From Spirochaetia bacterium (GTDB lineage: Bacteria > Spirochaetota > Spirochaetia > CAKZLE01), in contig OY782041.1 of NCBI GenBank assembly GCA_963677595.1, positions 1,184,001 through 1,248,000 of the forward strand: a DNA stretch of 64,000 bases. Direction: 5' to 3'. Shown here in pieces: positions 5,238 through 22,377 of this stretch. Numbering within the stretch: position 1 is the stretch's first letter; each line of letters opens with the position of its first letter. Made by a program: the position numbers and the translations under genes. The notes under the pieces were generated by a model. It did no database searches. It was given only the letters and a program-made list of their open reading frames with translations, and was not told the origin of the DNA.

Positions 5238-5240
5238 CAG

Positions 5241-6467
5241 ATGTTAGATACACTTCTGCACAAGGAGGTCCTCTTCCGTACCCACGGGAAGGACCTCTCT
5301 TTTTCCCTGTCGATGGGGCTCTTCAGCAGTAATGACATCGACACGGGATCGATCCTGCTCATCGACGAACTCATCGCACATGCCGATATTGCCGCCATGG
5401 ACCGTGTCCTTGATGCAGGCTGCGGTGTCGGGACCCTCGGGATCACGCTCAAGGCGCTCTATCCAGGCCTTGAGGTGACCGCCACGGACCGGGATGCCCT
5501 GGCCCTCGCCGTGACAGCCCATAACGCGGAGAAGAACGGCACCCCCATCATGACCGCACCGGGCCTCGATACCCTCATCTGGGACGGGGATCACGACGGA
5601 TTCATCGGTAGTGAAGGTTCCTATGACCTGGTCATGACCAACATCCCGGCCAAGGCCGGGGCACCCGTCCTGAAGCGGTTCCTGCAGAACGGGTTGTTCC
5701 AGCTGACAGATACGGGGATCTTCGCCTTCGTCATCGTGGACACCCTTAACAGTTTTGCAGAACAGATGTGCGCAGAACTCTCATGTGAGATCATCCATAA
5801 GCATGACGGACCCCGCCATACCGTCTTCCTTCTCCGTCGAACGGAAGAGACGGTATGCCCGCTTGATACCGGATTCCCCGGAGTCTATGCCAGGTGTACC
5901 GCTGAGTTTTCCGTCGGGAAGAGTTCCTACACCCTGGATACGGCCTACAGCATACCAGGATTCGATACCGTCCCCTATGAGGCAGCTCTCGGCATGGCTA
6001 TGGCAGAGAAGCATGTCGGGACATCCCTGGCTGTATGGAACCCGGGACAGGGCCATGCAGCGGTCGGCCTCCTGAAGGAGGGCGGGGTCAGGGAGGTCTG
6101 CCTGGCAGGCAGGGACCTGCTCGCCCTGCTCATCTCCCGCCACTCTATAGCACGATATGGGAACGGGGCGACGGTATCTATCATACATACACACAGTATA
6201 ACTGAGTTTTTGTCAATATGGCATATGCCGCATTCACAACCGCAGGGATTGCTCGTCATCTTTCCCGACCCTATCCCCCTCGTCCCTTTCAGGTCTCTGG
6301 TAGAGTCCTCGTATCTTGTTGCTGAAAAGAAGGTTAATGCATCCATCATCCTTGCTTCGAAGAGCTCGGTACTCGCTCCCTTTACCAGGGGTCTGCCCGG
6401 TTTCATCCTGAAAGGATCAAAAAAGAAGAACGGGTTTCGGGCAATATTCCTACAGAATCTTTACTAA
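5241..6467 (+). CDS. Class I SAM-dependent methyltransferase, RsmC/MTS-like, two-domain
   Basis: GLFSSNDIDTGSILL, VLDAGCGVGTLG, DRDALAL, MTNIP; C-terminal half is a degenerate copy (WNPGQG, GRDLLAL). Confidence 0.75.
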   Translation: MLDTLLHKEVLFRTHGKDLSFSLSMGLFSSNDIDTGSILLIDELIAHADIAAMDRVLDAGCGVGTLGITLKALYPGLEVTATDRDALALAVTAHNAEKNGTPIMTAPGLDTLIWDGDHDGFIGSEGSYDLVMTNIPAKAGAPVLKRFLQNGLFQLTDTGIFAFVIVDTLNSFAEQMCAELSCEIIHKHDGPRHTVFLLRRTEETVCPLDTGFPGVYARCTAEFSVGKSSYTLDTAYSIPGFDTVPYEAALGMAMAEKHVGTSLAVWNPGQGHAAVGLLKEGGVREVCLAGRDLLALLISRHSIARYGNGATVSIIHTHSITEFLSIWHMPHSQPQGLLVIFPDPIPLVPFRSLVESSYLVAEKKVNASIILASKSSVLAPFTRGLPGFILKGSKKKNGFRAIFLQNLY

Positions 6468-6525
6468 CCGGGCTCTTTGCTTTATCATATTACTAATAAT
6501 TGAAAAGACTTAAGGGAGTTTATCC

Positions 6526-6957
6526 ATGAGAATAACCACCAAGGGGCGATATGCTCTCAGAGCGATCCTCTACCTGATCCACTGCAGCGAAGATAAACCC
6601 GTATCCATCAAGACGCTCTCCGAGCATACTCAGTTATCGCCGGAGTTCCTTGAGCAGATCTTCTTCAGGTTGAGGAAGGCGAATATCATCACCTCGACCC
6701 GGGGACCGGGCGGCGGCTTCCGGTTCGAGAAGGCTGCATCCGAGGTCTCCGTCAATGACATCTTCAATGCAGTCGATGAAGGCTACCATGTAGCACCCTG
6801 CACCGAAGAGGACCCGGAGAAGGCCATCAACTGTGAATATGCCGGGGATTGTGTTGCCTGCGACTTCTGGCAGTATACCAACGACATCTTCATCGAGTAC
6901 TTCTCTACCATCTCCCTGCAGGATGTCCTCGACAAGAACTTCCCCAACCTGAGATAA
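6526..6957 (+). CDS. Rrf2-family transcriptional regulator with C-terminal Cys ligands
   Basis: MRITTKGRYALRA, FLEQIF, STRGPGGGF, C-terminal C..C..C..C. Confidence 0.92.
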   Translation: MRITTKGRYALRAILYLIHCSEDKPVSIKTLSEHTQLSPEFLEQIFFRLRKANIITSTRGPGGGFRFEKAASEVSVNDIFNAVDEGYHVAPCTEEDPEKAINCEYAGDCVACDFWQYTNDIFIEYFSTISLQDVLDKNFPNLR

Positions 6958-6963
6958 CCACCT

Positions 6964-8046
6964 CTACAGGTCAGTATACCAGATCTCCTCGCCATCCATG
7001 CTGCGGAAGAGATATCGATTTCCATCCCTCCTGATCAGGGATGGTTCCTGCAGGGTAACCTTGCCGCCGCCATCCGGCAGGTCGACGGCATACCTTGGCA
7101 TCGCGACCCCGGAGAGCCTCCTCCTCAGTGCTGACTCGATCCTGAAGCCCTCCTCGAGGGAGACCCGAAGATGGGAGGTACCGCTGGCCAGGTCTCCCTG
7201 GAACAGGTAATAGGGGGTGACCCGATGCGATACCAGCAGGTTCATCAGCTCCTCGAGGGTATCGGCATCATCGTTGACTCCCCTGAGGAGCACGGTCTGG
7301 TTATAGAGAAGGATCCCATGGTCCGAGAGTCTCCTCAGGGCAGCCGCACTCTCTGAGTCGAGTTCCCTGGGATGGTTGAACTGAGTCATCAGGAGGACCG
7401 GTGCTCCATCAGCGGTCTTCCCAAGGAGCTTGAGGAGGGAATCAGTCACCCGTGAGGGGAGAACGACCGGGACCCTCGTCCCGATCCGCAGGACCAGATC
7501 CGGTCGTGCCGCACGGAAGATGGCGAACATCCTCTCAAGCTGGCTGTCTTCCATGATCAGGGGATCTCCCCCGCTGATGAGCAGTTCACGGACCTCAGGA
7601 AGCCCCTCGAGCACCCGGGCAGCCTCCTCGATCTCATCGGCAGCCGCGATACCCTGGTGCTTTCCGGTGAACCTTCGCCTGAAACAATGGCGGCAGTACA
7701 TGGCACAGGTATCGGTCGCAAGGAAGACGGCCCTGCTCTGGTAGCGGCGGATGAGTCTCCCTGTCAGCAGATGCTGCTCCTCCGCCAGCGGGTCGGGGGT
7801 CTCGCATTCGAGGGAGATAAACTCCCGTGAAGAGGGGACCGCCTGCAGCCTGATCGGGTCGTCCCTGCCTGCAGCAGGGTCGATCAGCCCGAGGTACCGC
7901 TTGGGGAGGCGGAACCCGAGGGTCTCACGCCCTTCTCCGTTGTCGAACCACTCCTCTTCCTCATCGCTCAGCACCAGGTGTCCCGATATACCGTCACGAT
8001 CTGTCACTGCAGCTTTCAGCTGCTTCTTCCACTCTTCACTCGCCAT
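6964..8046 (-). CDS. epmB: KamA-family lysine 2,3-aminomutase (EpmB-like radical SAM)
   Basis: CAMYCRHCFRR (CxxxCxxC), ISGGDPL, RIGTRVP, QFNHPRE, NQTVLLRGVND, PYYL, GGGK; EF-P context. Confidence 0.85.
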   Translation of the reverse strand: MASEEWKKQLKAAVTDRDGISGHLVLSDEEEEWFDNGEGRETLGFRLPKRYLGLIDPAAGRDDPIRLQAVPSSREFISLECETPDPLAEEQHLLTGRLIRRYQSRAVFLATDTCAMYCRHCFRRRFTGKHQGIAAADEIEEAARVLEGLPEVRELLISGGDPLIMEDSQLERMFAIFRAARPDLVLRIGTRVPVVLPSRVTDSLLKLLGKTADGAPVLLMTQFNHPRELDSESAAALRRLSDHGILLYNQTVLLRGVNDDADTLEELMNLLVSHRVTPYYLFQGDLASGTSHLRVSLEEGFRIESALRRRLSGVAMPRYAVDLPDGGGKVTLQEPSLIRRDGNRYLFRSMDGEEIWYTDL

Positions 8047-8129
8047 GCTCTATCCATACCACACTTGCCCGTGGGATGTCCATGAACTTAAAACTGACGG
8101 AAGCGAAACCCTCTCATAATATTTTCAGG

Positions 8130-8158
8130 TTGACAGGGCGGTTTCCCAGTCGTATGGT
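8130..8158 (+). promoter_or_regulatory. sigma70-type promoter of the MFS gene
   Basis: TTGACA-N17-TATGGT. Confidence 0.55.
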
Positions 8159-8187
8159 TGTAGTGATGTGCTACTGAAAGGAGAGAA

Positions 8188-9489
8188 ATGATGAACGAGA
8201 ACAAGCGATCCGCGACCATGAAGGGGTATTACGGTATAACATTCCTCATCGGTCTCGGTTTCTTCACCATGGGCCTGATGGACCCGCTGTATGACACCTA
8301 CATCCCGATATTCCTCAGCAGGTATATAGACTCGAAGAGCTGGATCGGGATCATCATGACCCTGGACAACGTCTTCGCCATCTGCCTGATCCCGATAGTC
8401 TCTGCGCTGTCAGACCGGACCAGGACACGGATAGGCCGTAGGATGCCGTATATCATAACGACGCTGCCATTGACAGCTGTCGCGTTCGGAGTCATCCCCT
8501 TCACCGCATTGAACACCCTGTGGGCTCTCATCATCTCGATCTTCCTGCTCAATGTCTTCAAGCAGTCAGCACGGGGTCCTGTCGTGGCTCTCATGCCGGA
8601 CATCATCCCCGGCGAGCTCCGCTCCGAGGCGAACGGCGTGATCAATACGATGGGAGGGATCGCCTCCATCGTCGGGACCATCGGTCTCGCACAGCTGATG
8701 AACGTCGCGATCGACCTCCCGGGCAGGGGCCCCACGAAGGAGATCCTCGCCTACCCGGTCGCCGGTATCCTCGTGATCATCTCAACACTCCTCCTCTTCC
8801 TCTTCGTCAGGGAGAAGAAGGAGAAGTATGAGGAGAACAAGGAGGAGAAGGGACCAACCATACGAGAATCCCTGAAGCTGATCTTCGCCTCCACCGACAA
8901 GAGCGCCCTGCTGATCCTCCTCTCCCTGCTCTTCTGGTTCATCGGCTACCAGGGAGTCCTCCCCTTCATCGGGCTCTACTCACGCGATGTCCTGCAGACC
9001 TCGTCAGGGACAGCAGCCCTAGCAGCCGGGATGGTCGGGATCGCCTATGCGATCTTCGCCATCCCCTCAGGGGTCTTCGCCCATAAGCGGGGAAGGAAGA
9101 AGACGATCAGGACCGCCCTGGTCGTGCTCTTCTTCATCCTCCTTGGGGTATTCTTCCATGACCCCGTCACCACGGCACTGGGGTTCAGCATCATGGCCAA
9201 GCAGATCTCCTTCTGGATCCTCATGTTCTTCTTCGGGATGTTCTGGGTCGCCATCATCACCAACTCCTTCCCCATGCTCTGGCAGATGGCCACCTATGAG
9301 GATATGGGGATCTATACCGGCCTCTACTACTTCTTCTCCCAGCTCGCGTCGATCGTGGCACCGCCGATCACCGGGGGGTTCATCGACCTCTTCGGCTTCA
9401 GGGCGATCTTCCTCTTTGCCGGGATCTGCATGCTGGCAGCCTTCTTCATCATGGGAGGGGTCCGTCGGGGAGAGATCTCCGGGGAGTAG
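8188..9489 (+). CDS. MFS transporter (maltose/sugar permease-like)
   Basis: ~12 hydrophobic segments, SDRTRTRIGRRMPY motif, ALMPD..P.ELRSEAN. Confidence 0.85.
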   Translation: MMNENKRSATMKGYYGITFLIGLGFFTMGLMDPLYDTYIPIFLSRYIDSKSWIGIIMTLDNVFAICLIPIVSALSDRTRTRIGRRMPYIITTLPLTAVAFGVIPFTALNTLWALIISIFLLNVFKQSARGPVVALMPDIIPGELRSEANGVINTMGGIASIVGTIGLAQLMNVAIDLPGRGPTKEILAYPVAGILVIISTLLLFLFVREKKEKYEENKEEKGPTIRESLKLIFASTDKSALLILLSLLFWFIGYQGVLPFIGLYSRDVLQTSSGTAALAAGMVGIAYAIFAIPSGVFAHKRGRKKTIRTALVVLFFILLGVFFHDPVTTALGFSIMAKQISFWILMFFFGMFWVAIITNSFPMLWQMATYEDMGIYTGLYYFFSQLASIVAPPITGGFIDLFGFRAIFLFAGICMLAAFFIMGGVRRGEISGE

Positions 9490-9532: not shown

Positions 9533-9562
9533 TTGGCAATTTTGCCGGTTAAAGGGTATACT
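9533..9562 (+). promoter_or_regulatory. sigma70-type promoter of pelD-pelA
   Basis: TTGGCA-N18-TATACT about 20 nt before the ATG. Confidence 0.5.
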
Positions 9563-9582: not shown

Positions 9583-10869
9583 ATGAAGAAGAAACAGTTC
9601 GGATTGAGCCAGAGCATCATCGACCGCGCACTCAGCTTGTCACGGTTCTCCAACCTCTTCAGTACCTTCGGGGGTATGGTGACGGAGTTCATCCTCCTGT
9701 ATGCGCTCTGCATCATGATCTTCCTGCTGATCCCCGATATACAGTATTCCTTCCTCACCATGAACATCCACCCGCTCCTGTTCGTCTCCTGCTTCATCGG
9801 GATCAGGCACGGGTTCCTGGCAGGACTGCTCTCGGCCCTCCTCTCCTCGATGACCTATTTCTTCTCCTACACGTTCCTGAACCTCGACCCCATCCTCTTC
9901 TTCAGGAGCTACGAGTTCTACAAGTTCCCCCTCATCTTCACGCTCGGGGGCTACCTCTCGGGAAGGATCCATGACTCCAACTCGCGGCAGATGCAGGAGA
10001 TGCGGGATGCCAATGCGGAAGTCCTGCAGGAGTACGATGAGCTGGAAAAGACCTACAAGCGAACGATCCAGATGTACAACGAGCTCAAGGAGCAGATCGT
10101 CGGCGCCGAGTACAGTATCTTCTCCCTCTATGATATCGCATCCTCCCTGCAGACCACCAACCCAGAGAAGGTCTATACCGAGGCGATCGGCCTCCTCTAT
10201 AAGTTCATCAAAGCCCGCGCCCTCTCGATCTACACGATCGAGAACGGGGACTTCATGCGCCTGAAGATCCGGTTCGGCGGCAAGGCACACAAGAACAGCC
10301 GGAAGAAGTATACCGATTCCACCATGTACGACCAGCTCTTCAAGACCAGGAAGGCTGTCAGGTGGGCCGCTGATGCAGGCGAGGATGCACCGATCTTCAG
10401 TGCTCCCATCGTGTCCCAGGAGGAGGTCATCGGCATCATCGATATCGAGGAGATCGAGTTCGAGTACGTGACCGAGTACAGCTTCAGCATCTTCCAGGTC
10501 ATCAGTGAATGGATCGCAAAGGCACTCTCCCAGGCCCTCGACATCGACAAGCAGTTCCAGCTCATGGGCATCGACTACTCGAACATGCTGCAGGTCCCGC
10601 AGTTCGAGCTCCAGCTGAAGGAAGAGCAGGTGAGAAAGGAGAAGTACGGGCTGCCGTTCTGCCAGACCACCTACGACCTCGGCTTCCTCGATTCGGATGA
10701 GATCATCCCGAAGCTGCAGCGGACGCTGCGCAACGTCGACTACCTCTGCTATGACCCGGAGCAGAACCTTGCACGGGTACTCCTGCCGGCTACCGATGAG
10801 GAGAACTACATCATCGTCGAGAAGAGGATCTTCTCTTCACTCGGCTTCAGACTGGATCGGGCCATATGA
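9583..10869 (+). CDS. pelD: PelD-like c-di-GMP receptor (TM helices + coiled coil + GAF + degenerate GGDEF)
   Basis: N-terminal TM helices (HPLLF..IGIRHG..GL), coiled coil, GAF-like segment, C-terminal LRNVD (RxxD I-site) then VLLPAT; pel context. Confidence 0.75.
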   Translation: MKKKQFGLSQSIIDRALSLSRFSNLFSTFGGMVTEFILLYALCIMIFLLIPDIQYSFLTMNIHPLLFVSCFIGIRHGFLAGLLSALLSSMTYFFSYTFLNLDPILFFRSYEFYKFPLIFTLGGYLSGRIHDSNSRQMQEMRDANAEVLQEYDELEKTYKRTIQMYNELKEQIVGAEYSIFSLYDIASSLQTTNPEKVYTEAIGLLYKFIKARALSIYTIENGDFMRLKIRFGGKAHKNSRKKYTDSTMYDQLFKTRKAVRWAADAGEDAPIFSAPIVSQEEVIGIIDIEEIEFEYVTEYSFSIFQVISEWIAKALSQALDIDKQFQLMGIDYSNMLQVPQFELQLKEEQVRKEKYGLPFCQTTYDLGFLDSDEIIPKLQRTLRNVDYLCYDPEQNLARVLLPATDEENYIIVEKRIFSSLGFRLDRAI

Positions 10870-12719
10870 AAAGAACCACCCTCAGGTACCTGCTGGTCAT
10901 CATCATAGTCATCATCACGGCGATCATCCTCCAGTACCTGAAGGTGATCAACTTCATACCACGGGCCTTCTGGATAAGCACGATCACCCGCCAGGAGATG
11001 ACCGAGCGGCAGACCCGGTTCATCAGTTCTGACACGGTGCCGGATAAGTATGACGGGGTGTTCATCATCTATGAGGGGTCAAGGACCCATGAACGAAACA
11101 GCTACTACCACCTGGCCCAGACCTTCAGGAACGCCCATATCCACCATGAGGATTATGATGTGCTGACCGATGATATCGGGGAGATGCTGGAGGATATCCC
11201 TTTGGGGAGCCACATCATCCTGGCGAATGAGATCTCAGAGCAGCTATCAGATGAGGAGATAGCCCTGCTTGAGCAGCTGGTATATGAAGGTGCTCAACTG
11301 AGCATCGTCGTCCGTTCCTTCGATGCCAGGCTCGGGAAGGTCGCGGGGTTCTCCGGCATAACCAGGTACATCGAGACCACAGGGATCAACTTCGAGGAAC
11401 CCATCTTCCCAGGACTCGATGAGACAGTGACCAACCCGAAAGCCTTCCACTCCTCCTCCCTCGAGCTGTCCCTGTCAGAAGGGACTGAGGTCCTGCTCAC
11501 TTCGGATGATGAGACCCCGCTGGCATGGAAACACCCCTACGGCAGCGGTTCCGTGTTCTATGCGAACACGACCATCTTCCAGGACAAGAAGAACCGGGGG
11601 CTGCTGCTGCAGTACCTCCTTGATAATGCAGACTACGGCTTGGCCACGGTATTCAATAAGAAGATCATGAATATCGACGACTTCCCGGCCCCGCTGCCGG
11701 CGGGGAGGGATGCCGATATCTACGCAGAGTACCATCGTGACATCATCAAGTTCTACAAGGACATCTGGTGGCCCGATATGAGGGACCTCGCGGCAAAGTA
11801 TGACCTGGCTTATACCGGGCTGATCATCGGGACCTATAACGATGATACGACACCGCCGTTCAAGGAACTGACTGAAGGGGACCTGGAGAATATCGAGTTC
11901 TTTGCCAGGAAGCTTGATGAGATCGACGGCGAACTGGGGATCCACGGATACAACCACAACTCGCTCATAACGGAAGGCCTCATAGACTTCGAGGATTACA
12001 GTTATAACCCCTGGGCTTCCAAAGAGGACATGGCCGAGGCACTCACCTACCTCAGGTCCGAGATCGAGGCCCTCGTCGGGGAGATAGAATTCAGGACCTA
12101 TGTTCCCCCATCCAACCTGGCGAACAGGCTGTCGGAGGAGGCTGTCCTGGCTGCCTTCCCTGAACTCAAGGTCTTCGGGGGACTCTATACCGGTTCGCAG
12201 AACGAGAAGGAGACCCTGATCCAGGAATTCGGGCCGAACCCCTATTTTGATGGTGTATATGACTTCCCGCGGTTCAGTTCCGGCTACCTGAATGAGAATG
12301 AGATGTGGTCTATCTACAGCGCGATCGCTGAGCTCGGCGTATTCAACCACTTCATCCACCCTGACGACCTGCTTGACCCAGAACGGTCTTTGAACAATTC
12401 ATGGGAGGTCCTATTCAAGAGTCTCAGCGAGACCTTCGCGGAATTGACCGATCGCTTCCCATACCTCGAATCCGTGACTGATTATGAGGCATACCTCGAC
12501 TACCTGAATTATGAGAAGATGGACATCTTCAGCAGAAAAGAGGGTTCCACCATCGATATATGGGTCGAGGATGCACCACTCCCAACCTATGCCTACCTGA
12601 GAGTCGATGCCCCGATCGTCGATACGGACGGGATCACGCTCCATTCGCTTGACCGGGACGGTCTCTACCTCATCGAGATCCGGAAACCGGAATCCTCTGT
12701 GACACTCTTCTCCAAATAG
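10866..12719 (+). CDS. pelA: DUF2194 / PelA(DA)-type polysaccharide deacetylase
   Basis: N-terminal anchor, NIDDFPAP, IWWPDM, ELGIHGYNH, YVPPSN, PRFSSG, HFIHPDD; ATGA overlap with pelD. Confidence 0.82.
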   Translation: MKRTTLRYLLVIIIVIITAIILQYLKVINFIPRAFWISTITRQEMTERQTRFISSDTVPDKYDGVFIIYEGSRTHERNSYYHLAQTFRNAHIHHEDYDVLTDDIGEMLEDIPLGSHIILANEISEQLSDEEIALLEQLVYEGAQLSIVVRSFDARLGKVAGFSGITRYIETTGINFEEPIFPGLDETVTNPKAFHSSSLELSLSEGTEVLLTSDDETPLAWKHPYGSGSVFYANTTIFQDKKNRGLLLQYLLDNADYGLATVFNKKIMNIDDFPAPLPAGRDADIYAEYHRDIIKFYKDIWWPDMRDLAAKYDLAYTGLIIGTYNDDTTPPFKELTEGDLENIEFFARKLDEIDGELGIHGYNHNSLITEGLIDFEDYSYNPWASKEDMAEALTYLRSEIEALVGEIEFRTYVPPSNLANRLSEEAVLAAFPELKVFGGLYTGSQNEKETLIQEFGPNPYFDGVYDFPRFSSGYLNENEMWSIYSAIAELGVFNHFIHPDDLLDPERSLNNSWEVLFKSLSETFAELTDRFPYLESVTDYEAYLDYLNYEKMDIFSRKEGSTIDIWVEDAPLPTYAYLRVDAPIVDTDGITLHSLDRDGLYLIEIRKPESSVTLFSK

Positions 12720-12735
12720 GGACGGATGGTGCGCA

Positions 12736-15348
12736 TCAGGTATTGCGTTCATCCTCCTTCTTGAGATAGTTCGATATCATATCCTGCAGGGAGACATGTT
12801 CATCATGTTCTTCGTCCTCTTCCTCTTCCTCTGCATCCAGCACGATTCCGGTGAAGGTCCTGATGAACTGGTCATCCGACTCCTCCGCTTCGGGCTCCTC
12901 ACTGATGAGTTCGGAGGGTATATCTCTAAGCTCATCCCCGTATTCAGCCAGGAGGGACCCGAGCATTGGCATATCTTCCTCCTCAGCCTCGAGGAGCTCG
13001 AGCGGCGTAGGTGCGGTCTCTTCCTGCTCAGTCCCCTCAGGAGCGGGTTCAGCAGCGGACTCCTTGCCCTTGAGGATGTCTTCCAGGACATCATGCAGTT
13101 CGGAGACGGTCTCCTCCCTTGAGACAGGCTCCTCGGTGAGCAGGTGATCGAGGATGTCGCCGATCTGGTCCGGTTCCTCCTCGGCAGGCTCTGTCACCTC
13201 AGGAGCGGGTTCAGCAGCGGCCTCCTTGCCCTTGAGGATGTCTTCCAGGACATCATGCAGTTCGGAGACGGTCTCCTCCCTTGAGACAGGCTCCTCGGTG
13301 AGCAGGTGGTCGAGGATCTCCCCGATCTGGTCCGGTTCCTCTTCGGCAGGCTCTTTCACCTCAGGAGCGGGTTCAGCAGGGGTCTCCTTGCCCTTGAGGA
13401 TCTCTTCCAGGACATCATGCAGTTCGGAGACGTTCTCCTCCCTTGAGACAGACTCCTCGGCGAGCAGGTGGTCGAGGATCTCTCTGAGATGGTCCGGCTT
13501 CTCTTCGGCGGGCTCCTCGAGGATCTCGGTGAGCGTCTCCTTCAGGTGCTCTTCAGTCTCCTGGCGCTTCCTCTTCCTGACCCGGTGCCGTTTCTCCTCC
13601 TTCTCAAGGATCTCCAGCGGTGTGACGATCTCCTCGTCCGCAGGGACCGGCTCCTTCATCTCAGGCTCTGCAGGAGCTTCCGTCTCCGTCTCAGCTTCAG
13701 GGGCTTCCTTGATCAGCCCTGCATCAGCTCCCCCGAAGAGGTTAGCCAGCAGCTGTGCGTCCTTCTCCGATTCCAGCTGGGTACGGTCCTGTACCCCGAA
13801 CAGCTCCTCTTCGGCGTCGGGCAGATTCTCACCACGCTCGATCGCGTCCTTCCGCTTCTTCTCAAGCAGGAGCCGGTCCAGGGCATCCTGGTCCGTCATC
13901 CGTTTGTCGATCCACTCCTCCAGCTTCTCGAAGGTCTTGCTCTTGGTCTTGGTATGCACCGGCTGGGTCCGGTAGGTGTGGCTGATCACATCACGATACC
14001 CCATGATCATCAGGTAGAGCCCGAAGAGCATGGTCACGAAACTTGCCAGGAAGAACCCGAACCCGTAGAAGTTCTCCCCCCAGGAGAGGGAGAGGAGCGT
14101 GAATATGACGTTCGTGACCAGGAAGACCACCATGAGCAGGAGGGTCTTGTTACGTTCACCGATGTAGAGGAGGACCTGCATGAAGATGAGGATGAAGGAG
14201 TTGCAGAAGGCTCCCAGGGCATAGATCATGAAGATCTGCCGGGAGCTCTCCGGAACGTTGAGCAGCGGGAAGAGCGAGCGGGAAAGGACGATGATGATGA
14301 TCGTGATGAACAGCTGGATCTCGAAGGTCTGCAGGATGTTCTTGTTCAGGGAGCTCCACATCCGCTCAGCGAAGACCTTCAGCTCAGAGAAGGGGCCATT
14401 CCTCAGGACCGCCAGGAAGAACTCCCGGCACTTCACCGAGAAGTCGGTCTCGATGAGCACCATGAAGAGCATGGTCGAGGGAAGGATCGAAAGATAGGAG
14501 TAGAAGGTGGCGATGTCATAGAAGGGGGCATACCGGAAGGTCCCGAAGAGCTCGATACTGATCGGGGAGAACCACATGATGATGTTATCGATCCAGATTG
14601 CCATGGTATAGATGACGCCGATCGGCCAGAGACTCGGCTCGCTGTGGAAGTAGCGGATGAAATGGAGGACCTTCCCGTTATCCTCCTTCATCTCTGAGAG
14701 CAGCGCGATCAGGAGGAACATCGTGAAGAACACGATCCCCCCGAGGTAGGCCAGCAGGAGGTTCGTCGACCCGCTGAACTCGGAGAACTGCATCGGGTTG
14801 TTCGCGAGGATGAGGATGAGGATGAAGGTGACGAAGGTCCCGAGGATGTTGGACATCGTGACCAGCTTGAAGTTCTTCAGGGTCGACTGGTAGACGATGA
14901 GCATCCAGAGGACTGAGAGTACCACCATCAGGGCGACCGAGAGGTAGAGGAACTCTATCGGGATCTCACTGTTCCGGTAGAACCAGATCCCGAAGGTAAG
15001 CGCGATCAGCGAGACCAGGGCAGAGGAACCCCAGAAGGAAGGTTTTATGTACTCATACTCCTCCTTGTAGATCCTGTCCGCAAGGAACCGGGTGATGACC
15101 ATCTGGAACGGTGCGGTCAGGATCTGCGAGAAGAGGGTGCTGTAGATGATCGCCGAGATGAGCAGTTCCCGTTCGACGAAGGGGAGGTTCCACCTCCTGG
15201 AGAAGGCGAGGATCAGGTTGATGGTGACGATACTGATGATCCAGGGGCCTGCCGAGACGATGGCTGTATGGAACCAGGCATGTACCCGTGTCGAGTAGGC
15301 ATCATCACTCTTGATCATCTTCCTCAGGGAGAAGCCTATACCTGCCAT
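12736..15348 (-). CDS. pelG: Pel exopolysaccharide transporter PelG with long acidic repeat-containing C-terminal extension
   Basis: MAGIGFSLRK start, AGPW, TRFLADRIY, WIDNIIMW, YDIATFYSYLSILP, ETDF, YGFGF; core ends near YRTQP (~13960), then ~400 aa Glu-rich tail. Confidence 0.9.
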   Translation of the reverse strand: MAGIGFSLRKMIKSDDAYSTRVHAWFHTAIVSAGPWIISIVTINLILAFSRRWNLPFVERELLISAIIYSTLFSQILTAPFQMVITRFLADRIYKEEYEYIKPSFWGSSALVSLIALTFGIWFYRNSEIPIEFLYLSVALMVVLSVLWMLIVYQSTLKNFKLVTMSNILGTFVTFILILILANNPMQFSEFSGSTNLLLAYLGGIVFFTMFLLIALLSEMKEDNGKVLHFIRYFHSEPSLWPIGVIYTMAIWIDNIIMWFSPISIELFGTFRYAPFYDIATFYSYLSILPSTMLFMVLIETDFSVKCREFFLAVLRNGPFSELKVFAERMWSSLNKNILQTFEIQLFITIIIIVLSRSLFPLLNVPESSRQIFMIYALGAFCNSFILIFMQVLLYIGERNKTLLLMVVFLVTNVIFTLLSLSWGENFYGFGFFLASFVTMLFGLYLMIMGYRDVISHTYRTQPVHTKTKSKTFEKLEEWIDKRMTDQDALDRLLLEKKRKDAIERGENLPDAEEELFGVQDRTQLESEKDAQLLANLFGGADAGLIKEAPEAETETEAPAEPEMKEPVPADEEIVTPLEILEKEEKRHRVRKRKRQETEEHLKETLTEILEEPAEEKPDHLREILDHLLAEESVSREENVSELHDVLEEILKGKETPAEPAPEVKEPAEEEPDQIGEILDHLLTEEPVSREETVSELHDVLEDILKGKEAAAEPAPEVTEPAEEEPDQIGDILDHLLTEEPVSREETVSELHDVLEDILKGKESAAEPAPEGTEQEETAPTPLELLEAEEEDMPMLGSLLAEYGDELRDIPSELISEEPEAEESDDQFIRTFTGIVLDAEEEEEDEEHDEHVSLQDMISNYLKKEDERNT
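13012..13497 (-). repeat. Three in-frame tandem 162-bp (54-aa) repeats inside the pelG tail
   Basis: tcttccaggacatcatgcagttcggagacg recurs at 13079, 13241 and 13403; unit PDQIGEILDHLLTEEPVSREETVSELHDVLEDILKGKEAAAEPAPEVTEPAEEE. Confidence 0.95.
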
Positions 15349-15349
15349 G

Positions 15350-16921
15350 TCAGTTCAGCTCCTCTACATGCAGGCCGATCTGCACATCCTTGCCCTGGGA
15401 ACTCTGGAGGGAGATCCGGTAGATCTCATCATAGGCCTCGAAGACTGCCTGCCTGCTGTAGATGACCCTGGTGCGTTCGAGGCCGTTGAGTCCGTACTGC
15501 TTCCCCATCTCCCGGTCCTCATAGAGCTGGATGATCGCATCTGCCGTCTCTCTCGGGGAGACCGGCTTGGTGATGATGCCCCCGTGGCCGAACCCGTCAC
15601 CGACCCCCTCGACCAGGTCCCGGCAGGAGCCGACATCGGAGGAGACCACCGGGGTCGCACAGGCATACGACTCGAGGATGACCAGCGGCTGGGCCTCGGA
15701 GATCGAGGTCAGGACGATGACGTCAAGGATCGGCATGTACTCCTTGATGTTCACCCGCCCCGTGAAGATGATCTGCTCCTCGAGTCCCAGTTCCTTGACC
15801 AGGTCCCGGCACTCCCTCGCATACTCCTCCTCCTCATCATCCGGCCCGATGACATAGAGCAGCGTATCCTGGTACTTGGCATAGACGTAACTGAAAGCCT
15901 TGATCAGCGTCTTCACATCCTTGATGGGGACCACCCGGAGGATCGCCCCGATGTTATAGGTCTCATGCGGGTCCTTATGTCTCGGGAACCCCTCGATATC
16001 GACACCGTTGGGGATGACATAGGCCCGTTCCGGGTCGACACCGAGTTCCTGCTGTATCCCGCTGTTGTGGGCGAAGAGGGCTATCGCTATATCGCAGGTC
16101 TGGTAGGCCCCCCGGGAGAGAAAATAGAAGTAATCGATCCAGAGCTTCTTGTAGGGACCCTTTACCCAGTCGACCTTGAGTATTTCCTCCTCACGTTCCC
16201 GCGCATAGATACCGTGCTCGGTGAGGACGAACGGTTTGCCGTAGGTGAACTTCCCGATCAGCCCGATCAGCCCGGCATACCCCGTGGAGATCGCATGGTA
16301 AACATCGGCATCAGGCAGCGGCTGCTGCATGATGGAGATCAGGGTAGCCAACATGGAACGGAAGGTCCAGAAGAAGAGGTTGAATCCCTCATCCGGGTAA
16401 TTGGCCTCATAGAGCTCGACCAGGCTGTCAAAGAAGTGCCTGCTCATGAGGTAGTCGATCGTATTGCCGATCTTCGCCGGATCGCAGACCAGACGGGTGA
16501 TCAGCTCCCAGTCGATGGTGGAATCGAAGAAGGTGAACTTGCGCAGCTGCTCCTTCTCCTCCCGGGACAGGCGCATCCCGCGCTTCATCGTCTGGTCGAG
16601 GTTCAGGAAATCATACATGTAGATCGTCCTGAACTCGATGACATTCTCGGGGAAGGTATACTTCAGCTCCTTGACCTGGTCTTCGGAAGCCATGATGGTG
16701 AGTATCTTGAACCGGTAGTCCTTCATGATGTTCAGCAGCTGGTTCACCCAGGAGGAGACCCCCCCTGCGATATAGGGGTAGGCGCCTTCCAGGATCAGAC
16801 AGATAGTCTTCCCGTCCGGCTCGAGGGACGCACCATGGCGGCCCCAGTCCCGGGGACGCCGGCTGTCGAGTTCACCCCTAAAGAGTTTGACCTGCTGCTT
16901 CTTCGCTCGTCTCAGTTTCAT
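15350..16921 (-). CDS. pelF: GT4 glycosyltransferase PelF
   Basis: ICLILEGAYPYIAGGVSSW, HAISTGYAGL, LTEHGIYAREREEEI, RVVPIKDVKTLI, LTSISEAQPLVILE; exact start uncertain. Confidence 0.93.
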   Translation of the reverse strand: MKLRRAKKQQVKLFRGELDSRRPRDWGRHGASLEPDGKTICLILEGAYPYIAGGVSSWVNQLLNIMKDYRFKILTIMASEDQVKELKYTFPENVIEFRTIYMYDFLNLDQTMKRGMRLSREEKEQLRKFTFFDSTIDWELITRLVCDPAKIGNTIDYLMSRHFFDSLVELYEANYPDEGFNLFFWTFRSMLATLISIMQQPLPDADVYHAISTGYAGLIGLIGKFTYGKPFVLTEHGIYAREREEEILKVDWVKGPYKKLWIDYFYFLSRGAYQTCDIAIALFAHNSGIQQELGVDPERAYVIPNGVDIEGFPRHKDPHETYNIGAILRVVPIKDVKTLIKAFSYVYAKYQDTLLYVIGPDDEEEEYARECRDLVKELGLEEQIIFTGRVNIKEYMPILDVIVLTSISEAQPLVILESYACATPVVSSDVGSCRDLVEGVGDGFGHGGIITKPVSPRETADAIIQLYEDREMGKQYGLNGLERTRVIYSRQAVFEAYDEIYRISLQSSQGKDVQIGLHVEELN

Positions 16922-17966
16922 CCTGTATCCAAAATGCCAGGCGTTCAGACTGCTCCTTCGTGAGTTTGCTGCCCATCCTGCTTATGATCCTCGCCAGGTT
17001 CTTGACCTGGGGAAGATCACCCTGCTTGTAGAAACAGCTCATCAGCGTGAACTGTATGCCAACGTCCTCTGGATTGTTCTTCGCGACCTCCTTGAGGAGC
17101 TCACAGGTCTCATCCGCCCTTCCCTGCTCCATATAACTGTAGGCCAGGTGCTTCACGATCGAGAGATCGGAACCGAAGGTCTGCACCTGCAGCTCAAGGA
17201 TTTCGATGACCTTCTTTCGGTAGATCGGGATGATGTCATCATCGAGCAGCCCGGAATCGACATAGTTCTCATAGAGGGTGATCAGGTTCTCGAGGTTCTC
17301 CTTCGTCAGGTCCTCGGCAGCCTTGTCCCTGCCGTCCCTGATAGCCTGCTCGAACCGATTCTCCAGGTAGTTCAGGGTCGTCGCCGTATAATGGACGACC
17401 TCCGGGTCCTCATCCTCCAGCCCCTGCTTGAGTGTCCTGCAGTTCTGCACGACATCGGCGGAGAGCAGGTCTACGATCACTCCCTTCTTGTTGATCGCAT
17501 CGGAATAGGTGAAGACCCCGGACATATCCATGAGCTTCGCCACCTGTGCGAAATCGACGGTCTCCTTCTGCTCGTACTTCATCTCGGCCTCTTCGGCATA
17601 TGCGTGCTTGAACTCCTGCTGGACGAGCTTCATGCCGACGAAATAGAGGACGATATAAGAGATGCTGTAGATCAGCCCCCCCATTCCGGGGATGACGAGG
17701 AAGAGGACGGGGGAGATGTTCCGCGTCTGCGGGGAGGAGCGCTTGCGGATGACCAGGATCCCGCCGAAGAGGGCGGCATGGACCAGGAGCAGCACGGCGA
17801 TGCTTGAGTCGACCTGCTGCACGAAGGTGAAGTAGTAGTAGAAGATGATGAGCATGAGGTCGACGAGCCCGATGCATACGATGATCAGGGGATAGATCCA
17901 GGGGTTGCTCGTATAGGTGAAGTAGAGTTTCTGTATCTCATCCCGGTTCATCGCAGTGTCGGCCAT
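16878..17966 (-). CDS. pelE: PelE-like membrane protein with HEAT/TPR repeats
   Basis: N-terminal TM helices, GLEDEDPEVVHYTATTL, YVDSGLLD, C-terminal TPR-like helices; first gene of pelE-F-G. Confidence 0.72.
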   Translation of the reverse strand: MADTAMNRDEIQKLYFTYTSNPWIYPLIIVCIGLVDLMLIIFYYYFTFVQQVDSSIAVLLLVHAALFGGILVIRKRSSPQTRNISPVLFLVIPGMGGLIYSISYIVLYFVGMKLVQQEFKHAYAEEAEMKYEQKETVDFAQVAKLMDMSGVFTYSDAINKKGVIVDLLSADVVQNCRTLKQGLEDEDPEVVHYTATTLNYLENRFEQAIRDGRDKAAEDLTKENLENLITLYENYVDSGLLDDDIIPIYRKKVIEILELQVQTFGSDLSIVKHLAYSYMEQGRADETCELLKEVAKNNPEDVGIQFTLMSCFYKQGDLPQVKNLARIISRMGSKLTKEQSERLAFWIQDETETSEEAAGQTL

Positions 17967-18002: not shown

Positions 18003-18031
18003 ACTATACCATACAACACTACGGTGAGCAA
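18003..18031 (-). promoter_or_regulatory. sigma70-type promoter of pelE-F-G
   Basis: Minus strand TTGCTC-N17-TATAGT with extended TG. Confidence 0.45.
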
Positions 18032-18077: not shown

Positions 18078-18581
18078 ATGGACTACTCGATACGGTATGC
18101 TGAGATCAGGGATGCAGAAGCCCTCAGGGATCTCTATAACCACTATATACGGACCTCTATCGCCACCTTCGACCTGAAGGAGAAGACGACAGAGGAACGC
18201 GTCTCGTGGATCATTGACCATGACCCGTCCAGCCGCCACAAGCTCATCGTAGGCGAGGAGGCAGGGACCGGGGCGATCGTCGGGTTCAGCGCCAGCAGCT
18301 CCTTCAGGCCGAAGGCAGCCTATGACACATCGGTCGAGACCAGCATCTATGTACACCCTGAGTACTACGGGCACAAGATCGGCTTCACCCTCTACTCACG
18401 GCTCTTCGAGCTCCTCGCGCAAGAGGATGTGCATCGGGCATATGCCTGCCTCGCAGTCCCCAACGAACCCTCCCTGAAGCTCCACAAGCGGCTCGGGTTC
18501 ATCGAGGTCGGGTACTTCACCGAGTCAGGCTATAAGCTCGGGGCCTTTCGCGATATCCAGTGGCTTGAGAAACGTCTTTGA
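18078..18581 (+). CDS. GNAT N-acetyltransferase (phosphinothricin acetyltransferase/YncA-like)
   Basis: YNHYIRTSIATFD, FRPKAAYDTSVETSIYV, PNEPSLKLHKRLGF, GYKLG. Confidence 0.92.
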   Translation: MDYSIRYAEIRDAEALRDLYNHYIRTSIATFDLKEKTTEERVSWIIDHDPSSRHKLIVGEEAGTGAIVGFSASSSFRPKAAYDTSVETSIYVHPEYYGHKIGFTLYSRLFELLAQEDVHRAYACLAVPNEPSLKLHKRLGFIEVGYFTESGYKLGAFRDIQWLEKRL

Positions 18582-18669
18582 CTTTTTCTTGACATAACCG
18601 CCCCTGTTACGTAGTCTGTAAAACATAGTATACATACGGCTTTCACACATGAGGGGAAAGGGTACACAT

Positions 18670-18822
18670 ATGGGAACACATGAGATCATCGGGGTCGTGA
18701 CGACTATCGTATCGGCGATCGTCATCATCATCCTTGCAGCCACCAGTATTTCACGGGTCAATCAGATAGACAGGAACAACTATTCGAACATCCGCCAGCT
18801 CTACAAGAGGTCCCCTAGATGA
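18670..18822 (+). CDS. Small single-pass membrane protein (50 aa), not in ORF track
   Basis: MGTHEIIGVVTTIVSAIVIIILAATSISRVNQIDRNNYSNIRQLYKRSPR*; purine-rich RBS; TGA overlaps the permease ATG (ATGA). Confidence 0.65.
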   Translation: MGTHEIIGVVTTIVSAIVIIILAATSISRVNQIDRNNYSNIRQLYKRSPR

Positions 18823-21086
18823 GCGGCCCGCAGCATGAGATCAAGACCGAGTTATCACGGGAACTGACCCTCTTCCAGCTGACCATGATGGGCCTCGGGA
18901 TGATGATCGGGGCAGGGGTGTTCCTCGGGATCGGGAATGCCATCTACCATTCCGGGCCTGGGGGTGTCATGCTCACCTTCGGCCTCAACGGGGTCCTTGC
19001 CCTCTTCACCGCCATGTCCTATGCCGAGCTCAGTTCGGCCATCCCGCGGGCAGGTGGCGCATTCAACTTCGCCCGGCTCGCATTCGGGAACGGGACGAGC
19101 TTCATCGCCGGATGGATGGAGTGGTTCGCCTCGAGCATCGCCGGCAGCATGTATGCCATCACCTTCTCCATCTACACCCTCCGGTATTTCGAGACCCTCG
19201 GCTGGCTTCCCCCAGAGGTCTCGGCACTCCTGACGAAACCGGTGGCAGTCGTCGTTGCCCTCCTCTTCCTCTATATCAACTTCAGGGGGGTGTCAGAGAC
19301 GGGGAAGATCGGGGCGATCATGACCCTCGGGCAGACCCTGTTCCTGGTCTTCATCGCAGCAGCCGGGGTGTTCGTCGCGATCAAGGACCCCTCCAGGCTG
19401 GCAAACTTCACCCCCTACCTCCCCAACGGGTGGGGTAAACTCCTGGTCACCATGGGCTTCACCTATGTGGCCTTCGAGGGCTATGAGGTCATAGCCCAGG
19501 CAGGGGATGAGGCAATCGAGCCGAGGAAGAACCTCCCGAAGGCGATGATCCTCTCAGTCACGATCGCGGCCCTCACCTACATCGGTGTCTCCTTCGCCGC
19601 CGTGGTCGCCATCAAGGCAGGCTCGGAGGGGATCGAGATCCCCTGGGTCTGGATCGGTTCGTTCGGGGAGAAGGGGTTCGGCGAGGCTGTCGCCCGCCTG
19701 ATCCCGGCAGGGAACATCCTGCTTACCATCGCCGTCATATTCGCCTCGACCTCGGCACTGAATTCCACGATCTTCTCTGCCACACGGGCCTCCTATGCCC
19801 TCGGCAGGGACCAGATGCTGCCTCCCTTCTTCGCGAAGATCTCGGCGAAGCGGAAGACTCCGGTCGGAGCCCTCGTCTGCACGGCAGGCATCATCATCGT
19901 CGTGGCGGCGTTCCTGCCGACCATGGATGTCGCATCCTCGGCAAGCATCATGTTCCTCTTCCTCTTCTTCCTCGTCAACCTCTGCGTGATCAGGGTCAGG
20001 AACAACATGGGAGATGAGTTGAAGTACGGGTTCATCACCCCGCTCTTCCCCCTCTTCCCGATCCTGGCGGTCATCATGCAGGCAGTACTTGCGGTCTGGC
20101 TGGTCCATATGAGCCTGATCGCCTGGATAGTAGGACCTGCATGGATCCTCGCAGGGATCGTCTTCTACCAGGTCTACGCGAAGCACCATATCACGCTCAC
20201 CGAGGATGACATACACGTCCTCTACGAGGAGACCCCGCCGCAGACCCAGGAGCGGCGCTTCATCGAGCGTATCATGATCCCGATCGCCAACCCGAACAAT
20301 GTCCCGAAGCTCGTGGACATGGCCCAGAAGCTGAGTTCCGATGAGGAGAATACTACCATCGAACTGCTCCATATGGTCTCCGTACCGGACCAGCTGGCAC
20401 TGGCTGAGGCAGACCGGTACATGGCTGACGGACAGGAGGGGCTGCTCGCGGCATCCCAGCTGCTGGAGAAGTTCGTGACCTCGTCAACCATCAGGTACTG
20501 CAGGAACATCGCACGGGGTATCATCTCCACAGCTAAGGAGAACCGGGCGACCATGATCGTCATGGGCTGGCACGGAAGGCACCAGAACAGCCTCTTCACC
20601 ATCGGGAGCACCCTCGACCCCGTCATCTGCCGGGCACCCTGCAACGTGATCATCACCAAGGATGATATCACGAAGCGGACCTATACGAAGATTCTCGTAC
20701 CGCTCTTCGGGAACGTCAATGACGCATTGGCCATGAAGACGGCTGAGTACCTCCTGCCGAAGGAGGGAGGGGTGATCACGGCCCTCTACTTCAATGCTGC
20801 CAGGATGCGGCCGGGTCATATCCACAACATCCTCCACAGGATCATTGACAACCCGGGCATCAGGATCGAGGAGCAAGCCTCGAACAGCAGGCACCGTGAG
20901 CAGGACAAGACGATCCTCGAGGCTACTGCCGGCCATGACCTGATGATCCTCGGCATCAAGGAACCGAGGATGCACCGGCTCGGGCGACCCTCATCCTCCG
21001 AGCGGATCGCACGGAGCTGCAGATCCCCCTTCCTCCTCGTGAAGGCGAACAACCCGATCAGGCGGCTGACGAAACGCTGGCTGTAG
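18819..21086 (+). CDS. APC-family amino acid permease fused to two universal-stress-protein domains
   Basis: GMMIGAGVF, YAELSSAIPRAGG, FEGYE, ~12 TM; C-terminal IMIPIANP...IVMGWHG...PCNV and ILVP...LMILG USP motifs. Confidence 0.9.
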   Translation: MSGPQHEIKTELSRELTLFQLTMMGLGMMIGAGVFLGIGNAIYHSGPGGVMLTFGLNGVLALFTAMSYAELSSAIPRAGGAFNFARLAFGNGTSFIAGWMEWFASSIAGSMYAITFSIYTLRYFETLGWLPPEVSALLTKPVAVVVALLFLYINFRGVSETGKIGAIMTLGQTLFLVFIAAAGVFVAIKDPSRLANFTPYLPNGWGKLLVTMGFTYVAFEGYEVIAQAGDEAIEPRKNLPKAMILSVTIAALTYIGVSFAAVVAIKAGSEGIEIPWVWIGSFGEKGFGEAVARLIPAGNILLTIAVIFASTSALNSTIFSATRASYALGRDQMLPPFFAKISAKRKTPVGALVCTAGIIIVVAAFLPTMDVASSASIMFLFLFFLVNLCVIRVRNNMGDELKYGFITPLFPLFPILAVIMQAVLAVWLVHMSLIAWIVGPAWILAGIVFYQVYAKHHITLTEDDIHVLYEETPPQTQERRFIERIMIPIANPNNVPKLVDMAQKLSSDEENTTIELLHMVSVPDQLALAEADRYMADGQEGLLAASQLLEKFVTSSTIRYCRNIARGIISTAKENRATMIVMGWHGRHQNSLFTIGSTLDPVICRAPCNVIITKDDITKRTYTKILVPLFGNVNDALAMKTAEYLLPKEGGVITALYFNAARMRPGHIHNILHRIIDNPGIRIEEQASNSRHREQDKTILEATAGHDLMILGIKEPRMHRLGRPSSSERIARSCRSPFLLVKANNPIRRLTKRWL

Positions 21087-21108
21087 CTGTATGGCACTGG
21101 ATAAACCA

Positions 21109-21140
21109 AGGGGTCGACTCATACCAGTCGACCCCTCTTT
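21109..21140. terminator. Hairpin terminator between convergent genes
   Basis: AGGGGTCGACT-catacc-AGTCGACCCCT followed by CTTT. Confidence 0.75.
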
Positions 21141-21160
21141 GATCTCTATTACTTTCCTTA

Positions 21161-21769
21161 TTACCTGTTCAGCATGATCTTGACACCCACCTCATCAGTG
21201 AGGAATGCGATCTGGCTCATCCGGTCGGCATCGGCCTGCCCTGCTGAGAAATCAGCATAGGGTCCGGTGAGGACCTCGAAGGAACCACCCTCCTCGACCA
21301 CCTCGGTGGTGATCTCAAGCTCCTGCAGCTGTGAAGAGAGGGCATCGGCAGCTGCCTGGGAGTCCTCGGTTCCCAACAGGACCCAGTAGAAAGCATCCGG
21401 TTGGGCAGCACCAGCTTCTGGTTGGGCAGCCGGTTCCGGCTCCGGTGCCGGCGCTGGTTCCGGCCCTGCAGCAGTCGTACTCGAAGCGGCGGGCTTCACG
21501 ACTTCCGCAGGTTTCGCGGTCTCCGCGACCGCAGGTGTTTCTTCAGCCGCAGTGTCATCGCCCGGAGGCTCGGCAGCCTCTGTTCCATCAGGTACAGCTG
21601 GTGCGGCAGCAGCTGCCGCGGGGGTCTCAATCGGTTCGTCCGCTGCCTGGACAGCAGAGGCCTGCCGGTCTCCCATCATCTCCAGGTAGGCGATAGCACC
21701 GCCGGAGAGGACAGCGAACAGCAGGGTGAGGACGAACAGGAACCAAAGGAATTTACTTCTCGCCATCAT
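21161..21769 (-). CDS. SPOR-domain membrane-anchored protein with Ala/Pro/Glu linker
   Basis: N-terminal TM, low-complexity linker, C-terminal YWVLLG...FEVLTGPY...A SPOR-like domain; downstream of polA-coaE. Confidence 0.7.
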   Translation of the reverse strand: MMARSKFLWFLFVLTLLFAVLSGGAIAYLEMMGDRQASAVQAADEPIETPAAAAAAPAVPDGTEAAEPPGDDTAAEETPAVAETAKPAEVVKPAASSTTAAGPEPAPAPEPEPAAQPEAGAAQPDAFYWVLLGTEDSQAAADALSSQLQELEITTEVVEEGGSFEVLTGPYADFSAGQADADRMSQIAFLTDEVGVKIMLNR

Positions 21770-22377
21770 CAATCTCCTAGCTCAATTCCCCGATCCCGGT
21801 AGAAAGCCGCTAACTGTCTCCTCAGGATCGAGTCTCCATGATTGTTCATTATAACATACAAAGGCTTCCCGTCGAAAAAGTATTTGGGGGCGATACTCCG
21901 CTGGACCCTGTTCCTCCGTATGAAATCAAGGACCGGCATACCCCTGGAACTCGTAGCCCTGATGAACCTGATGAGAGTCGATGCCTGTACATAGAGGACT
22001 GCGTCACAGGCAAGGTTGAGGCGCATCTTATGCAGGATAGCAGCATTGAGCACCGTTCCCATCGGGTAGCGGTCCGTGTCGCGGCCCTCGATCAGTTCAT
22101 GGCACATCCGCACCATCTCCGGGTGGAGCACCGATTCCAGGAATGCCAGGTTGGCAGGGTCGTTGAAGACCCGTTCGGCGAGCTTCCTCCTGCTGATCCT
22201 CCCGCCGGGCTCCTTGCGGATTCCCTCCCCGAAGAACTCCAGCAGGGGTTCACTCGCATGCTTGAGCGCAGCATGGCCGAGGTGGTCCACATCGATCACA
22301 TCCCAGCCCTGCTGCGACATGATCCCGCCTACCCGGTTCTTCCCCGTGCAGAACTTGCCAGTCAGCCCTACGATCAT
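21769..22377 (-). CDS. coaE: Dephospho-CoA kinase
   Basis: MIVGLTGKFCTGK, IDVDHLGH, LESVLHP; follows polA. Confidence 0.88.
   Translation of the reverse strand: MIVGLTGKFCTGKNRVGGIMSQQGWDVIDVDHLGHAALKHASEPLLEFFGEGIRKEPGGRISRRKLAERVFNDPANLAFLESVLHPEMVRMCHELIEGRDTDRYPMGTVLNAAILHKMRLNLACDAVLYVQASTLIRFIRATSSRGMPVLDFIRRNRVQRSIAPKYFFDGKPLYVIMNNHGDSILRRQLAAFYRDRGIELGD

Follow-up and report, generated by a model that had tools for sequence, protein, structure and literature searches.

How does a polysaccharide machine of the kind known from Gram-positive bacteria come to lie in a spirochaete, divided into two halves that face each other, and how could its product leave a cell with an outer membrane? 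The question is raised by a pel locus in a 64,000-nucleotide stretch of a Spirochaetia bacterium (assembly GCA_963677595.1, contig OY782041.1, positions 1,184,001 to 1,248,000; hereafter the window), in which pelD and pelA on the forward strand meet pelG, pelF and pelE on the reverse strand tail to tail. We consider it probable that the locus encodes a complete Gram-positive-type Pel inner-membrane machine, likely making a partly deacetylated alpha-1,4-linked N-acetylgalactosamine (GalNAc) polymer under cyclic di-GMP (c-di-GMP) control, and that its split most likely goes back to an old inversion that was tolerated. The five reading frames were found, all open, where a preliminary description of this DNA had placed them, and the identities that it gave to them were upheld:

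9583 to 10869, + strand: pelD, 428 residues; class I, with membrane helices, a coiled coil, a GAF domain and a degenerate GGDEF domain; predicted c-di-GMP receptor.
10866 to 12719, + strand: pelA_DA (DUF2194), 617 residues; N-terminal membrane anchor and CE26-type deacetylase.
12736 to 15348, − strand: pelG, 870 residues; predicted inner-membrane exporter (residues 1-459) and a 400-residue acidic low-complexity tail.
15350 to 16921, − strand: pelF, 523 residues; GT4 glycosyltransferase with DUF3492.
16878 to 17966, − strand: pelE-like gene, 362 residues; N-terminal membrane helices and C-terminal TPR.

Hidden Markov model (HMM) searches for DUF2194, DUF3492/PelF and PelG all passed the curated cut-offs. 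PelA, whose gene shares a 4-bp ATGA overlap with pelD, matched Pfam DUF2194 (E 3.5e-101) and PDB entry 9ZAU (E 1e-88); it has one hydrophobic helix at residues 10-28, no hydrolase domain, and intact catalytic motifs (D271/D272, H360/H364, R469, H498), the reference residues being those of PMC13254593 (here and below, papers are cited for the portions of their text that were available). PelF scored 376.8 bits against NCBIfam NF038011 (cut-off 100; E 1.9e-112) and E 2e-76 against DUF3492, and PelG E 4.5e-117 against Pfam PelG. The pelE product contains three hydrophobic helices and a TPR match below cut-off (E 1.7e-4), with no family match above cut-off, and is similar to the gene preceding pelF in Fusobacteriota (E 4.9e-12); judged by sequence, an assignment to PelE fits its topology, its position and this likeness. 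The predicted PelE-PelD complex scored 0.23 (mark 0.32).

PelD was the one protein for which the expected HMM match failed: the PelD_GGDEF Pfam model gave none, its sequence yielded a weak GAF match and nothing more, and a sequence search against the PDB returned nothing useful. Sequence searches likewise miss PelD_GGDEF in Bacillus cereus PelD (PMC7112168). It was identified by fold instead, the top eight structures found by Foldseek with its model (predicted local distance difference test score, pLDDT, 81.9) all being Pseudomonas aeruginosa PelD (best E 1.5e-9). Its I-site consists of R383-x-x-D386 and R415, of which R383 and D386 are invariant in 23/23 aligned homologs and R415 is kept in at least 90%; the spacing is that of R363, D366 and R395, needed for c-di-GMP binding by B. 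cereus PelD (PMC7112168). The gene set is thus of the Gram-positive type, as had been proposed: adjacent pelF and pelG, a PelD, a DUF2194 PelA, and no pelB or pelC.

The convergent layout proved to be real and confined to a small group. We refer to the host genome as G000, to its family as f1, to the sister family as f20 and to a third family as f12. Among ten genomes of f1 and f20, all nine that are pelG-positive have pelD-pelA facing pelG-pelF-pelE at one site, mostly flanked by the same MFS or GNAT neighbours, and two metagenome contigs share this layout. An independently assembled contig of 1,552 bp, with 40 differences, bridges positions 11367-12924 across the junction. In G004 (89% complete), the MFS gene directly adjoins the GNAT gene on one contig and all five pel genes are absent, a state that reflects either loss or the condition before insertion, between which the placement of G004 on the polA tree does not separate; the five genes are gained or lost as a unit. 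Of 37 loci that carry both a DUF2194 pelA and pelG, the metagenome loci among them being a sample (the best 80 of more than 540), 25 are co-directional, one is divergent and 11 are convergent, and all 11 are of the f1/f20 type.

The proposal that the host is a spirochaete and not a Firmicute was borne out by polA. Its named neighbours belong to Spirochaetia/Spirochaetota with the single exception of one 'Bacteroidetes' bin, and the polA tree (34 rows) placed the host in Spirochaetia, with f1 and f20 as one clade (99/99) and f12 as its sister (98/97). The 'Bacteroidetes' label on the close homologs P0009 and P0182 was taken as wrong; P0182 nests within f20 on the same tree. BamA (Omp85) was above cut-off in five of five genomes tested, so that a host without an outer membrane was rejected, and LpxC was found in none of five genomes tested. 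Flagellin was detected neither in G000 nor in the 9/9 other f1/f20 genomes or the 2/2 f12 genomes, and was present in 18 of the 19 remaining genomes tested alongside them. G000, G001 and G024 have one transpeptidase each, versus three to four in two flagellated relatives. Sphaerochaeta, described as having no flagella and many clostridial genes (PMC3372971), is resembled by the f1/f20 hosts in these traits, and we infer that f12 is the Sphaerochaeta family. The codon usage of the pel genes is fully native (58th-99th percentile).

The ancestry of the locus lies with Gram-positive-type systems. In a PelG tree of 45 rows out of 126, the f1/f20 sequences formed one group (100/100) whose clade-mates are Clostridium, Gottschalkia, Mcinerneyibacterium, Fusobacteriota and two f12 loci (97/98), within a wider grouping to which Paenibacillus also belongs (100/99). 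A tree that unites the f1/f20 sequences with the main spirochaete PelG clade was rejected (approximately unbiased test, p-AU 0.0015, simple model). FastTree trees of PelD, PelA and PelF gave the same broad placement, the exact sister being weakly supported except for PelA, where it is the Fusobacteriota type (0.986); from these sequences, the five genes appear to share one history. On the PelG tree, at least three independent pel lineages occur within Spirochaetia. Two f12 genomes hold a separately acquired clostridial-type locus (L033:8537-17766, L034:6674-10564). L033 comprises GH114, CotH, VTC, DUF4956 and pelD-E-F-G, and DUF2194 was not found in f12 (0/49).

Cetobacterium and Fusobacterium have a co-directional D-A-E-F-G order, one inversion away from that of the window, and the layout is most simply explained by one old inversion of pelEFG from this Fusobacteria-like order. 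The locus would have entered the common ancestor of the flagellum-less families f1 and f20 as a single D-A-E-F-G unit drawn from the Clostridia/Fusobacteriota branch, and E-F-G would then have inverted, with a promoter of its own. The Fusobacteriota loci (Cetobacterium somerae NZ_CP092520.1, Fusobacterium vincentii NZ_CP084075.1), whose pelF and pelG are noted in PMC9848294, PMC12826042 and a table of PMC7112194, resemble the window in having an outer-membrane host, Gram-positive-type genes, pelA right after pelD, a PelG of the same clade and an extended PelG C-terminus. In contrast to the window, they are co-directional and include a hydrolase and a small beta-barrel gene (OMP_b-brl match, Fusobacterium copy), and the repeats in their PelG extension are of a kind unrelated to that of the window. 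In the records examined (L053:11409-14430, L054:11418-14684), this long C-terminal repeat extension is followed by the beta-barrel gene of about 310 residues, a candidate non-PelB exporter.

The window system works like pelDEA_DAFG of B. cereus ATCC 10987 (PMC7112168, PMC13254593, PDB 9ZAU) but departs from it in operon order and in its host, which is not monoderm. Both have the same five genes, a class I PelD whose RxxD motif and further arginine are identically spaced, and a membrane-anchored DUF2194/CE26 deacetylase without hydrolase domain; both lack pelB and pelC, and in both the GH114-type hydrolase and GalE-like genes are separate, in the window host unlinked. Unlike B. cereus, the window host has an outer membrane, pelD-pelA and an inverted pelE-F-G served by two promoters where B. 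cereus has a single D-E-A-F-G operon, a PelG with a 400-residue acidic tail, and a sister family with a degenerate PelA. DUF2194-type PelA is treated as monoderm-specific in PMC7890745. With P. aeruginosa pelABCDEFG (PelD, PDB 4DN0/4ETZ; PelBC, PDB 9H80), the window shares the PelD fold and I-site, PelF, PelG and a PelE-like scaffold, but it has no PelB, no PelC and no fused hydrolase-deacetylase PelA.

On the model of the P. aeruginosa and B. cereus systems, c-di-GMP would bind the PelD I-site, PelD, PelE, PelF and PelG would assemble, PelF would polymerise UDP-GalNAc and PelG would pass the chain over the inner membrane; membrane-anchored PelA_DA would then deacetylate it, here in the periplasm. 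The genome contains 34 GGDEF matches and a GalE-like gene (39% identical, E 1e-66). In the weakest step, the outer membrane would be crossed by an unlinked, unrecognised route, and the polymer would most likely form a coat for aggregation or biofilm growth. In the host genus it may be trimmed by an unlinked GH114 protein; this candidate Pel-trimming enzyme has a lipoprotein-like N-terminus and is encoded beside pyruvate dehydrogenase genes (G000 C1:2111799-2112821, L139).

Other Spirochaetia provide a measure of what is missing. Pel is not rare in spirochaetes: of 401 Spirochaetia genomes, 93 have a pelG that passes its cut-off (six weaker matches dropped). No relevant paper on spirochaete Pel was found in the literature searched, mostly open-access, as the preliminary description had supposed; that such loci are common, like the absent exporter, the PelG tail and the degenerate f20 PelA, had escaped that description. 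As for published tables, 12 of the 18 supplements of PMC7112194 hold no spirochaete names, and Fusobacterium pelF and pelG are listed there. Most of the pelG-positive genomes carry a TPR protein of about 1,250 residues, most like PgaA, BcsC and PelB, whose C-terminal part was modelled as a beta-barrel (pLDDT 88.4). A profile built from 19 such sequences matched 82/401 genomes, or 74 once eight with short weak matches were dropped, and 73 of these are pelG-positive. It matched none of the nine f1/f20 carriers versus 73 of the 84 other pelG genomes.

This class-wide type (L022-L030, L040-L048, L052; for example L025:2977-14836 and L044:5567-17564; 73/401 genomes) consists of pelD-E-F-G and the 1,250-residue protein, which has an N-terminal beta domain, TPRs and the PgaA/BcsC/PelB-like barrel; an HDOD gene is often present, no PelC was seen, and a DUF2194 deacetylase occurs in some members only. 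The main Spirochaetia locus (L025, L028, L044), for which no paper was found, is like the window in its pelD-E-F-G and in host class, but its PelG forms a separate clade (100/100), it has its own TPR/beta-barrel protein, and its pelA is either missing or placed co-directionally or divergently, with no convergent case among the loci examined.

Several observations weigh against the proposed mechanism and history. Profiles of the PelB barrel, PelC, the Fusobacteriota barrel and the spirochaete TPR-barrel found nothing at E<1 among 19,040 six-frame open reading frames of G000, a search in which the PelD profile recovered its own gene, and PF24604 was negative in G000, a model that also misses the spirochaete exporter itself. 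In other outer-membrane bacteria with a Gram-positive-type system, the locus itself usually encodes an exporter. Five relatives were searched for the GH114 gene, which was found in G001 and not in the other four. The closest PelG relatives with long loci are D-E-F-G without an adjacent pelA; because of this, the D-A-E-F-G precursor was deduced from Fusobacteriota only, and the donor gene order draws on Fusobacteriota records together with metagenome loci, a contig scan with a single PelF having given just two loci, both from Campylobacterota. Finally, the full-length PelA of 4/4 f20 genomes, and likewise that of L059, has no DD, HxxxH or MT5 residues:

L019:10160-12025, L036:10026-11879, L037:8001-9869, L038:12908-14752 and L059: degenerate PelA_DA of f20, catalytic and metal-binding residues lost.

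The remaining 30 of 35 DUF2194 proteins (at least 500 residues) keep the DD and HxxxH motifs. A membrane-anchored PelA with the full catalytic residue set is present in the window and in f1 but not in the four f20 genomes, where PelD (RxxD included), PelE, PelF and PelG stay conserved; of the five genes, pelA is the fastest-evolving. Catalytic mutants of B. cereus PelA_DA make no Pel (PMC13254593), and since f20 PelA is without the residues that B. cereus needs, the standard mechanism cannot apply to the whole lineage without modification. One of the four f20 genomes (G056) has a second DUF2194 gene with intact motifs, but it is partial and lies on a short contig. The Pel of S. intermedius may be mostly GalNAc (PMC12345266).

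The oddity of f1/f20 is that a Gram-positive-type system was taken up by cells that have BamA and no known Pel exporter. An unlinked, divergent barrel is a possible exporter, and the genome holds many predicted outer-membrane barrels (a heuristic list, none tied to Pel). Alternatively, the polymer may be made but not exported, forming a structural or osmotic envelope layer in the periplasm of a flagellum-less lineage with a reduced wall-building set. Such retention would agree with the presence of BamA yet no exporter, the skewed distribution of the TPR-barrel, the single transpeptidase and the lack of flagellin, and two loci of the flagellum-less f12 are also Gram-positive-type without the TPR-barrel; the dead f20 deacetylase is consistent with a polymer for which positive charge is not required. 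However, barrels diverge past recognition, as the failure of PF24604 on the spirochaete exporter illustrates, the absence of the locus from G004 implies that it is not essential, and to our knowledge no periplasm-retained Pel has been described. We therefore regard retention as unlikely, though not far-fetched. Its fuller form, in which a Gram-positive Pel synthase would have been repurposed for a periplasm-kept GalNAc polymer with no exporter, made in f20 without deacetylation and with dead PelA as a binding or scaffold subunit, is likewise doubtful.

A second alternative concerns the split itself, which might be adaptive, the receptor and deacetylase being tuned apart from the synthase and exporter while converging transcripts interfere or anneal. 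The features on which it would depend are:

9533 to 9562, + strand: predicted sigma70-like promoter of pelD-pelA; −35 at 9533-9538, 18-bp spacer, −10 at 9557-9562.
18003 to 18031, − strand: predicted extended −10 sigma70-like promoter of pelE-F-G; −35 at 18031-18026, 17-bp spacer, −10 at 18008-18003.
12718 to 12759, + strand: stem-loop over the two facing stop codons, lacking a U-tract; may act as a transcription barrier.

The suggestion of one promoter per half gained support from conservation. The pelD promoter has 10/12 consensus matches and a similar motif upstream of pelD in all five pel-carrying f1 genomes, in which the −10 hexamer, preceding TG and TTGC-start −35 of the pelE-F-G promoter also recur. 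The latter was read by eye and is absent from the list of a consensus scan that includes, of the two, the pelD promoter alone; the scan by itself stood at chance level (5 sites vs 4.9 in shuffles). Neither motif was recognisable in the same form in f20. Conserved promoters in f1, a layout fixed over two families, a faster-evolving pelA that is degenerate in f20 and a stem-loop across the junction would all be in keeping with an adaptive split.

The junction, however, turned out to be ordinary, contrary to the earlier emphasis on its tightness and on antisense overlap. Between the pelA and pelG stop codons lie 16 bp (12720-12735); by rough gene calls (3,443 genes), 229 of the 471 convergent pairs of G000 lie within 16 bp, with a median gap of 20 bp, so that the antisense idea has no special support, although some 3' transcript overlap, usual for this genome, is plausible. 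The gap ranges from −4 to 144 bp across nine f1/f20 genomes, leaving out the 256-bp gap of L055, a product of a broken reading frame. The stem-loop (−25.1 kcal/mol for an 81-nt stretch; z-score −2.46 on the + and −1.46 on the − strand) was not called as a terminator, and its sequence is not conserved in relatives. Moreover, PelD is an obligatory partner of PelE, PelF and PelG in known systems (PMC13254593) and would thus sit in the wrong half, and fixation following a single inversion requires no selection. An adaptive split is accordingly improbable in our view. A listing-level search returned no paper on a split or convergent pel operon, and the supplement figures of PMC7112168 may show other gene orders.

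An artefactual inversion in the assembly, or decay of the locus to a relic, might be suggested by 6.28% assembly contamination, a tandem repeat near the junction and a pelE in two pieces in G003. Both are hardly credible, the inversion being refuted by the same junction in eight other genomes and two metagenome contigs and by the bridging contig, and decay being opposed by five open frames with intact motifs.

With this locus the range of Pel, a biofilm polymer that is among the most widespread, comes to include Spirochaetia. The lineage provides two natural experiments. In one, a synthase of the Gram-positive type lies in a cell with two membranes and no known exporter, which raises the question of the extent to which PelB and PelC are required. 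In the other, the f1/f20 pair, with an active versus a degenerate PelA_DA beside conserved PelD, PelE, PelF and PelG, puts to the test a recent proposal in which Pel synthesis is gated by deacetylation (PMC13254593). The convergence by itself carries little weight; the interest lies in the exporter gap and the sister family with a dead deacetylase.

The PelG tail (400 residues, window 12739-13938) is acidic, with 33% aspartate plus glutamate, and contains a repeat array:

13026 to 13515, − strand: three tandem 162-bp (54-residue) repeats (TRF period 162, 3.0 copies, 93% matches).

Tails range from about 100 residues and basic in f20 to 400 residues and acidic in the window, and a short motif near the end is common to other f1 tails.

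Two reading frames are broken in relatives: pelE is split in two frames in G003 and whole in the near-identical L055 (L021:10058-11140, L055:10001-11700), and pelG is split in two frames in L055 and whole in G003; both are probably sequencing errors. The locus is flanked by conserved housekeeping genes, with efp, a methyltransferase, an Rrf2 regulator, a KamA-type radical SAM protein and the MFS gene on one side (4674-9489) and GNAT, an APC permease with a Usp domain, SPOR, coaE and polA on the other (18078-25091). An identical gene was called near both ends of the single G000 contig (7971-9374 and 4321466-4322869), which suggests an untrimmed circular overlap.

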